Virus record (IMG/VR): IMGVR_UViG_3300027653_000374 | Location: 1-33,748 of that record | Reading direction: 5' to 3' (one strand) | Origin: a virus | Lineage: Duplodnaviria > Caudoviricetes | DNA: 33,748 nucleotides | Part shown: one piece after another, positions 24,084-24,582 of the stretch | How positions within the stretch are numbered: the stretch's first letter is position 1 | Layout: every line of letters begins with the position of its first letter | Notes under the pieces: generated by a model | Databases searched by the model: none | What the model saw: the letters and a program-made list of their open reading frames with translations, nothing else | What the model was told of the DNA's origin: nothing | Position numbers and translations under genes: made by a program

Positions 24084-24582
24084 TAACTGTATTAATAATA
24101 CACTAAAATCCTCATTAATACACCATTAATACAGGAATTAATACACCCCTAACCCGCATGAAATAAGGATTAATACACTTTCGGGGGCGGGGGTACACTA
24201 AGAAAAATAAAAAACCGTCAGAAAAATTTATTTTTTATTGTTTAAATTTTCTGACAATTTACTTATATTAATAAAACTATAATATTATATCATAGTAGGA
24301 GAGGCGTAAGCACACTTATCCACCTTAATAGTATCACCCTAATATTACCCAGTCAAACAAACATCGAATATTTTACAAATCTGCTCTTTTTTTTTTTTTT
24401 TTTTTTTTTTTTTTAGAATATTCATAATTGTCTGACTATTATTAGGTTCTAATTTAAAAAACTAAAGTGTATCCGTATTTCTATTCTCCAGTTGCCCCCT
24501 CCCCCAAAAGTGTATTAATGGCTCAACCACGCCGTTTGTAGCGTATTAATTGGTGTATTAATGCTGTATTATAATACAGTTG
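24084..24582. repeat. Inverted iteron arrays (ATTAATACAC) flanking an AT-rich core; putative replication origin
   Basis: Left copies at 24114, 24125, 24137, 24169; inverted copies at 24510, 24541, 24553; 25-bp inverted repeat 24169-24193 / 24495-24519 (23/25 match). Confidence 0.7.

Follow-up and report, generated by a model that had tools for sequence, protein, structure and literature searches.

A mirror-repeat element beside the gene for a predicted multi-RHH protein is a candidate replication origin in phages with a primase-MCM helicase

Three diverged phages share a real, conserved cis element that is rather likely to be a replication origin of some kind, read either by an RHH protein encoded beside it, to which we give an even chance, or by the helicase itself, which seems quite unlikely to us. 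In the first of these readings, which is the one we prefer, the element is the origin of lytic replication, and a multi-RHH protein reads its repeat arrays, helps to load a TOPRIM-MCM helicase and probably also controls a promoter in the core. The stretch of DNA analyzed here, called the window below, is one phage contig of 33.7 kb (33,748 nucleotides), in which the element occupies 24084..24582, between co-oriented genes and about 20 bp upstream from the start codon that opens a gene for a 321-aa protein. Because the flanking genes point in the same direction, the element is not a divergent hub.

Results

Layout of the element

The first-pass annotation had described a mirror-symmetric element whose left arm holds AACTGTATTAATAATACAC and four copies of ATTAATACA, and we recovered both (Table 1). 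We also reproduced the 23/25 identity that it had given between 24169-24193 and the reverse complement of 24495-24519. These inner segments lie 301 nt apart and enclose the AT-rich, ORF-free core of about 300 bp that it had reported, with its GTCAGAAAA/TTTTCTGAC hairpin and T28 tract; G+C content of the core is 24% in the window, and no ORF of at least 60 aa in the window's ORF list overlaps the element. The claimed mirror symmetry stands for the head-to-head arrays and is imperfect in the outer parts, the right arm having three boxes and a palindrome.

The repeats are strongly concentrated here. The window has 10 copies of ATTAATACA, with 7 inside the element, against 0.91 expected, and a count of 10 was reached in none of 100 shuffles; for the box TTAATAC[AG][CG], 8 of the window's 11 copies are inside the element. 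Folding of the element as a single strand gave z = -8.2. A mirror-array detector blind to the motif fired in 0/30 block shuffles of the window, with the reservation that it is sensitive to orientation, missed L005 (another record of the window's phage) and gave hits in L022 as well and, at 7 bp, in L028.

The element has no Rfam match in the window or in L023/L034, no intrinsic terminator was found in the window's copy, and blastn of the region against phages and against plasmids returned no match. A DnaA box was considered and rejected, the single 8/9 match at 24316 being one of 16 such matches in the window and having no counterpart in L006 or L015.

Table 1. Features of the element and of the genes associated with it, in window coordinates.
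Feature	Position	Strand	Description
Arm on the RHH-gene side	24085..24193	+	Outer inverted pair, four boxes, G-string
Outer inverted pair AACTGTATTAATAATACAC	24085-24103		In the arm on the RHH-gene side
Four ATTAATACA copies	24114, 24125, 24137, 24169	+	
Inner box TTAATACACTTT	24170-24181	+	RHH-side arm
G-string, RHH-side arm	24183-24193		Window only
Short hairpin GTCAGAAAA/TTTTCTGAC	24217..24259	-	GTCAGAAAA at 24217-24225, TTTTCTGAC at 24247-24255
Candidate DNA-unwinding element	24229..24293		From nearest-neighbour energies
26-nt motif after the promoter-like site	24321-24296	-	Common to window and L015
Sigma-70-type promoter-like site TTGACT-17-(TG)TACTAT	24356-24328	-	Toward the replication operon
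Poly(dA:dT) tract	24387..24414		A on the sense strand; T28 in the window
Far arm	24495..24582	-	Mirror image
G-string, far arm	24495-24505		Window only
Inner box, far arm	24507-24518	-	
Three boxes, far arm	24511, 24542 (as ATTAATACGC), 24554	-	
Perfect 16-bp palindrome	24564-24579		Far arm
321-aa gene	23099..24064	-	First gene downstream of the element
945-aa primase-MCM gene	14829..17666	-	Zn-binding region, TOPRIM/DnaG-type primase, MCM N-tier, MCM AAA+, C-terminal helix/strand domain
Replication operon		-	321-aa gene, XRE, SNF2, PD-(D/E)XK nuclease, Sak4, HTH, SSB, HNH-AP2, 945-aa primase-MCM, PolA
Lysis and virion genes		+	Holin, endolysin, tail-type protein

Conservation in related phages

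Alignment of the helicase yielded two independent relatives with DNA at this position, L006 and L015, whose primase-MCM proteins are 70% and 68% identical to that of the window; with the window, this makes three independent phages. Two further records, L004 and L005, represent the window's own phage (their MCM is 100% identical) and were not counted. In both relatives, the gene directly downstream of the element encodes a homolog 33-36% identical to the window's 321-aa protein, and head-to-head TTAATACAC arrays are common to all three. In each of the six arms, TTAATAC(A/G)(C/G) boxes recur at a period of 10-12 bp and are followed by a jump of 31-33 bp to the inner TTAATACACTTT. The boxes are confined to the element in both relatives, with 11/11 inside it in L006 (22.8 kb) and 11/11 in L015 (20.9 kb). 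Distances between inner boxes come to 349, 375 and 385 bp in the three phages, or 312-321 bp when the A-tract is left out, and AATTNTCAGAAAATT, one half of the hairpin, is kept in all three at 87-90 bp from the end of the RHH-side inner box. The genes immediately upstream of the element in L006 and L015 have no tblastn match to those of the window, and the HNH-AP2 gene is found in L015 and not in L006. In the window, this gene (17679-18158, minus strand) stands before the helicase gene as a mobile, homing-type insertion.

The G-strings at the inner ends of the arms had been likened to those of archaeal ORB boxes, an analogy in which they would be functional and orienting. The window does show inverted boxes and G-runs flanking an AT-rich core, its helicase is MCM-like, and G-strings at ORB ends are essential in Haloarcula oriC1 according to an excerpt of PMC4010727. 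In neither of the two relatives, however, are G-strings present: their position is taken by a pyrimidine stretch ending in TGTAT, and the 16 nt inside the inner box are identical between window and relatives at only 3-6/16 positions, against 11/16 between the window's own arms. We therefore reject G-string/ORB homology. None of the 47 ORFs scanned has an Orc1/Cdc6 family match, the mirror-iteron origins of SaPI/PICI elements are closer, and an ORB analogue now appears extremely improbable.

To delimit the element's distribution, we scanned 13 distant primase-MCM loci (L001, L002, L016-L020 and L025-L030; BSP7 and SV21 whole, the rest in part), and the DNA scanned holds no 321-aa homolog, no TTAATACAC cluster and no A/T run longer than 10. 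The profile of the 321-aa family matched only the loci of the three phages that bear the element. The co-occurrence with the primase-MCM envisaged in the first-pass annotation thus holds for the close clade (3/3) and fails for the distant loci (0/13), and since element and 321-aa gene occur together in all three phages, the element follows the 321-aa gene and not the helicase type.

Wider scans added no relatives. A strand-blind cluster scan picked up other, different repeat clusters in L017, L020 and L029. Scanning viral contigs for the arm pattern gave two loci, L023, which is the same record as L015, and L022, which proved to be an unrelated 11-bp tandem repeat. Four loci matched the core motif: L031-L033, whose flanks are unrelated, and L034, which also comes from the L015 record. 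SNF2 and RHH scans found no further clade member, and a genome-contig scan returned three distant loci only.

Candidate melting site, poly-A tract and promoter-like site in the core

Both the easiest-melting 30-bp window and the easiest-melting 60-bp window of the entire 33.7 kb fall within the candidate DNA-unwinding element, and in L015 and L006 the matching stretch of the core, downstream of the poly-A, also ranks first at 30 and 60 bp. The poly-A tract is not top-ranked in melting, which points to a spacer rather than the melting site.

This tract is the T28 of the first-pass annotation, which had not recognized its conservation. It is present in the window and has poly-A counterparts on the same strand and in the upstream half of the core in L006 and L015; its length is 28 nt in the window, 63 nt in L006 and 67 nt in L015 (beside an N) as assembled, these lengths being uncertain and possibly products of assembly. 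L004, the second assembly of the window's phage, begins with A20 inside the tract. Because the tract occupies the same place and strand in three separately assembled phages, the presence of T28 is not purely an assembly artefact. The longest A/T run in 30 other loci (457,747 bases) is 10, and a conserved poly-A of 28-67 nt between mirror repeats is unusual for phage DNA, even as an operator. With such a tract in the element, assemblies of the clade break there. For several RHH homologs, the only known contigs measure 1.1-1.9 kb, which fits assembly breaks at an upstream poly-A.

On the promoter side, the promoter-like site and the 26-nt motif that follows it are at the same position in the window and L015 and are missing in L006, where this part of the core is replaced by (ATA)39 (L006 4447-4563), a simple repeat that may be a genuine unwinding element or may have arisen in assembly. 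Promoter numbers stay close to chance, at 7 versus 3.2 +/- 2.1 in the window and 4 versus 3.8 in L015.

The shared promoter-like site and motif are one argument for reading the element as an operator only, with the origin elsewhere. The multi-RHH protein would then act as an autorepressor, and possibly as the lysogeny repressor, by binding both arrays, looping out the core promoter and silencing the replication operon, and the poly-A upstream of the -35 would be a length-variable tuner. Such a role suits a gene that is first in the replication operon and whose product has mostly repressors and antitoxins among its RHH fold matches, in a phage with no divergent repressor/Cro pair among the window's ORFs and with an XRE gene that has no tblastn match in the parts of L006 and L015 examined. 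There is also a precedent in pRN1, where a dispensable homopolymer precedes a repressor/primase-helicase operon (PMC4234260, from an excerpt). The near-chance promoter counts weaken this reading, as does L006, in which promoter and motif are missing but arms and spacing are retained and the core melts even more easily, with the proviso that its (ATA)39 could be an assembly error. Moreover, the early-gene leader at 30.4-31.9 kb, where a global repressor would be expected to act, contains no box, and an operator has no need of mirror symmetry around the top-ranked melting site. On balance, we treat an operator alone as a real but minor possibility.

GC skew is compatible with the operator reading in that it does not flip. 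At fourfold sites it is 0.32 +/- 0.09 upstream and 0.38 +/- 0.08 downstream of the element in the window, and 0.30 and 0.26 in L006; neither raw nor fourfold-site skew changes sign at the element. The bidirectional origin that had been proposed consequently gains no support from skew, there being no compositional trace of a dominant one. This evidence is weak, since a switch would be masked by residence as a prophage, by biased transcription or by rolling-circle replication.

The adjacent 321-aa protein

The identity of the neighbouring gene product is a second point absent from the first-pass annotation: it is a predicted multi-RHH DNA binder. The protein has no Pfam, PHROG or NCBIfam family, and tblastn against phages and plasmids found no match. 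A search of 1.84 billion representatives gave a family of 15 members; PF09524 (G38P) matches none of 16 family members, and a PDB sequence search with the family profile returned just four chance-level matches. An AlphaFold2 model built from 16 sequences (mean pLDDT 91) has repeated strand-helix-helix units, which we interpret as two predicted tandem RHH modules at about residues 106-203 and 238-321, and the N-terminus carries a Cys/His cluster (C4, C7, H28 and C36).

Structural comparison points in the same direction. Residues 238-321 match 9f0x_E, an F-relaxosome chain that we take to be TraY, with Z 8.4 (rmsd 2.5, 81 aligned), a value close to the typical best score for unmatched models, followed by DndE (Z 6.1), a permuted single-chain Arc (Z 5.4) and VirC2 (Z 3.9); residues 106-203 match AvtR (Z 4.4). 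Most of the RHH matches, which also include ORF56 of pRN1, are repressors or antitoxins. Foldseek against the PDB found the same relaxosome chain weakly (E 0.24) and against viral models two unnamed matches at E <0.001 and named RHH proteins at E 0.06-0.4, and the language-model neighbours of the C-terminal part are RHH-type. The RHH units have no sequence similarity to one another (hhalign probability <=1.7%), so that the repeat structure rests on the model. The individual scores are modest but agree, and together they suggest an unclassified protein with two tandem RHH modules. Known tandem-RHH proteins (9f0x_E, DndE, VirC2, AvtR and single-chain Arc; Z 3.9-8.4) likewise have two beta-alpha-alpha units per chain, whereas the 321-aa protein apparently has two such modules and a Cys/His N-terminal part.

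RHH proteins are usually repressors; they read short repeats by a two-stranded sheet and bind phased arrays cooperatively. The 321-aa protein is likely to bind the boxes of the element. Its C-terminal strand is alike in the three phages (LSTVRV, MSSIRV and LTSTRV), which fits one shared box. Among titles and abstract openings searched, we found no paper on the element or on the 321-aa family. The closest named homologs of this protein and of the helicase are labelled Pueribacillus theae by the database (P0002, P0005). Two pairs of helicase and RHH homologs, P0008/P0045 and P0010/P0026, share longest-contig values of 20945 and 22178, a hint that they come from the same contigs.

Phased 11-bp repeats with an RHH binder resemble parC/ParR, and a centromere-like site of this type heads a group of other functions that we considered: an oriT or nick site for the Replic_Relax-like gene, a packaging site, an invertible switch or a MITE remnant. 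The best fold match being a relaxosome chain would suit a nick site, as would the weak Replic_Relax match at 31889-32599 (E 9.8e-5, below cut-off), and recombination between arms could account for their resemblance within a genome (11/16 and 13/16). However, no ParA, ParM or TubZ match occurs among the 47 ORFs of a contig that lacks the left part of the genome. Inversion of the core and a MITE, the alternatives raised by the first-pass annotation, find little in their favour: two public contigs spanning the region, possibly from the same run as the window, are unbroken through both arms, each ending at the tract by length, and show no joints, bearing in mind that rare variants are lost from public contigs, and the core is oriented alike in 3/3 phages. 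The element is also present in one copy per sequence at a fixed syntenic site, with no blastn match in phages or plasmids. As a group, these functions are very unlikely.

The primase-MCM helicase

The helicase likely to be loaded at the element is the 945-aa primase-MCM. Its Pfam MCM match (E 1.1e-11) is above cut-off, and alignments of its MCM model with archaeal and eukaryotic MCMs extend over about 600 columns, including 591 columns with 9nuk_A, a 596-residue archaeal MCM chain (E 1.4e-27, TM by target 0.63). An alignment of this length indicates that the N-tier seems present, and the protein is predicted to have an MCM (SF6) fold with an AAA+ domain and an N-terminal tier. The fusion of primase and MCM is not unique and occurs widely: matches to the protein, at 23-28% identity, come from 55 phage records, 44 of them over at least 80% of its length. 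In the titles, abstract openings and excerpts covered, no origin or initiator is named for phage primase-MCM helicases, BcMCM (see below) included.

The C-terminus of the protein may itself be a DNA reader. Secondary structure, the only basis for this call, gives a helix-strand-helix-strand-strand order that is winged-helix-like, and the domain is 62-65% identical in the closest relatives. The RHH protein is 24-40% identical to its relatives, depending on region, and the box is unchanged; this difference in conservation fits the MCM as binder and argues against an RHH-read origin. In a self-loading scheme of the SaPI/P4 kind, the C-terminal domain would read the boxes, two hexamers would flank the AT-rich centre and the RHH protein would be an accessory or regulator. 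The layout is SaPI-like, and there are precedents in the SaPI helicase, whose winged helix binds iterons (PMC9371898), and in P4 alpha, a DnaG-type primase-helicase whose winged helix, at the C-terminus, binds the origin (PMC4889955), both as given in excerpts. What speaks against self-loading, beyond the secondary-structure basis of the winged-helix call, is that the element lies 6.4 kb upstream of the helicase start and is fixed to the RHH gene, and that 13 distant primase-MCM loci are without such an element in the DNA scanned. We rank reading by the helicase as quite unlikely and prefer the RHH protein as the reader of the arrays.

Comparison with known origins

Known systems are cited below from excerpts of the papers. 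The closest known design, by analogy, is the mirror-iteron origin of SaPI/PICI elements. In SaPI origins, 6-12 iterons are split about equally between the two sides of an AT-rich centre, in opposite orientation, and two hexamers are proposed to load (PMC9371898). Similarly, the element has short, opposed iterons on both sides of an AT-rich centre, at least two per side, numbering 8 boxes in the window and 11 in each of L006 and L015, and a primase-helicase fusion is available. There are differences as well. SaPI iterons lie immediately downstream of rep (PMC9371898), whereas the element is found upstream of the helicase gene, at a distance of 6.4 kb, and adjoins a separate gene for a predicted multi-RHH protein in 3/3 phages. 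Its genome is not that of a satellite but of a phage that encodes PolA, holin, endolysin and tail-type/virion proteins itself. Its 9-bp boxes follow a 10-12/31-33 bp register, the inner boxes are 349-385 bp apart, and the core has a long poly-A and a promoter-like site. The element is a variant of the mirror-iteron design set apart by a dedicated, unclassified partner predicted to be multi-RHH, a long poly-A and a full MCM.

Archaeal oriC (PMC4010727) shares with the element inverted repeats around an AT-rich region beside a candidate initiator gene and an MCM-fold helicase with an N-tier, and differs in that here there is no Orc1/Cdc6, the candidate binder is an RHH protein without an ATPase family match, and G-strings occur in 0/2 relatives. 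The SPP1 oriL/G38P system (PMC5737612) is likewise a phage origin of about 350 bp with repeats, a DUE and a dedicated non-AAA+ initiator, near the initiator gene; there, however, the repeats have an adjacent DUE and work in one direction, with a PF09524 initiator and host primase and polymerases, whereas here the arrays flank the core and no PF09524 match was found.

Among helicases, BcMCM of the Bacillus cereus prophage phBC6A51 is also a phage primase-MCM fusion beside a family A polymerase, with about 25% identity over residues 373-827. It unwinds 3' to 5' and has been studied as a simple model of eukaryotic MCM (PMC2715239, PMC3273815). Its primase region is AEP-type (PMC2715239), whereas the window's protein is TOPRIM/DnaG, and the first 30 kb of phBC6A51 contain no such element and no RHH homolog. 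In pRN1 (PMC4234260), the small repressor ORF56 heads a primase-helicase operon (orf56/orf904) with a homopolymer upstream, much as here; its C17 run, however, is dispensable, the essential origin-like part is a downstream stem-loop, and there are no mirror arrays. Convergence on poly-A is also found in RepA_N iterons, there inside each short iteron (PMC7145576).

The phage genome and other possible control regions

The window comes from a temperate phage, probably of a Bacillus relative; it has an early-gene block and, at its right end, an integrase gene that adjoins tRNA sequence. The integrase region (31889-33748) has the weakly Replic_Relax-like gene directly behind the integrase. At the contig end are two tRNA-like Rfam matches that ARAGORN does not call, the public contig stopping at 33651 inside the first; this end is consistent with an attachment site.

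Besides the element, the 1.4 kb at 30447-31888, between the Replic_Relax-like gene and the early genes, is probably also a control region and is the alternative site at which an origin might be located. It is AT-rich, has no ORF of at least 60 aa on the minus strand and a local GC skew near zero, and contains a 57-nt direct repeat (31210-31266 and 31289-31345, 81% identical). GACTAGTCAGT- and GACTACTCAACTATA-like words recur in intergenic gaps of the early region (30136-30185, 30471-30520, 29485-29499 and 30999-31019) and are possibly repeated early promoters or operators.

Two further segments stand out. Clustered early genes resembling amidoligase, RadC/JAB, glutamine amidotransferase and gamma-glutamyl cyclotransferase at 26332-29449 (minus strand), kept in L006 at 34-2891, look like a peptide-tagging or host-modification module. 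A 1046-aa protein encoded at 5808-8948 (plus strand) has weak homologs in Paenibacillus phage SV21, L016 and L018-L020, which suggests a wider group of 44-48 kb primase-MCM phages, none with the element in the DNA examined.

Discussion

What remains of the original proposal is its central idea: mirror iterons surround a DNA-unwinding-type core in 3/3 clade members with sequence at this position, and the arrangement is best read as a replication origin, shorn of the ORB/G-string analogy. In the mechanism we favor, the RHH protein would bind both head-to-head TTAATACAC arrays, coating each along one helical face, and its binding would bend the DNA between the inner boxes, some 350-385 bp, or draw it into a loop. 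First to open would be the A/T-mixed stretch at 24229-24293 and not the poly-A, and the RHH protein would help the primase-MCM to engage this low-stability core, with one MCM ring on each side. The poly-A may act as a stiff, slippage-prone spacer of variable length. The same RHH binding could dampen the promoter-like site and so couple expression of the replication operon to use of the origin.

A stronger version, which we consider doubtful, would be a two-protein form of MCM licensing in which an ATP-independent multi-RHH protein replaces Orc1/Cdc6 and sets two primase-MCM rings head to head, while a hypervariable poly-A of 30-70 bp tunes either the geometry of the loop or the output of the operon.

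The element provides a defined candidate origin of 500 bp, together with a candidate initiator and a helicase on one phage. If our preferred reading is correct, the RHH protein would be an origin-recognition factor for an MCM that retains its N-tier, and the phage would offer a minimal system for the loading of two MCM rings and the first opening of DNA.
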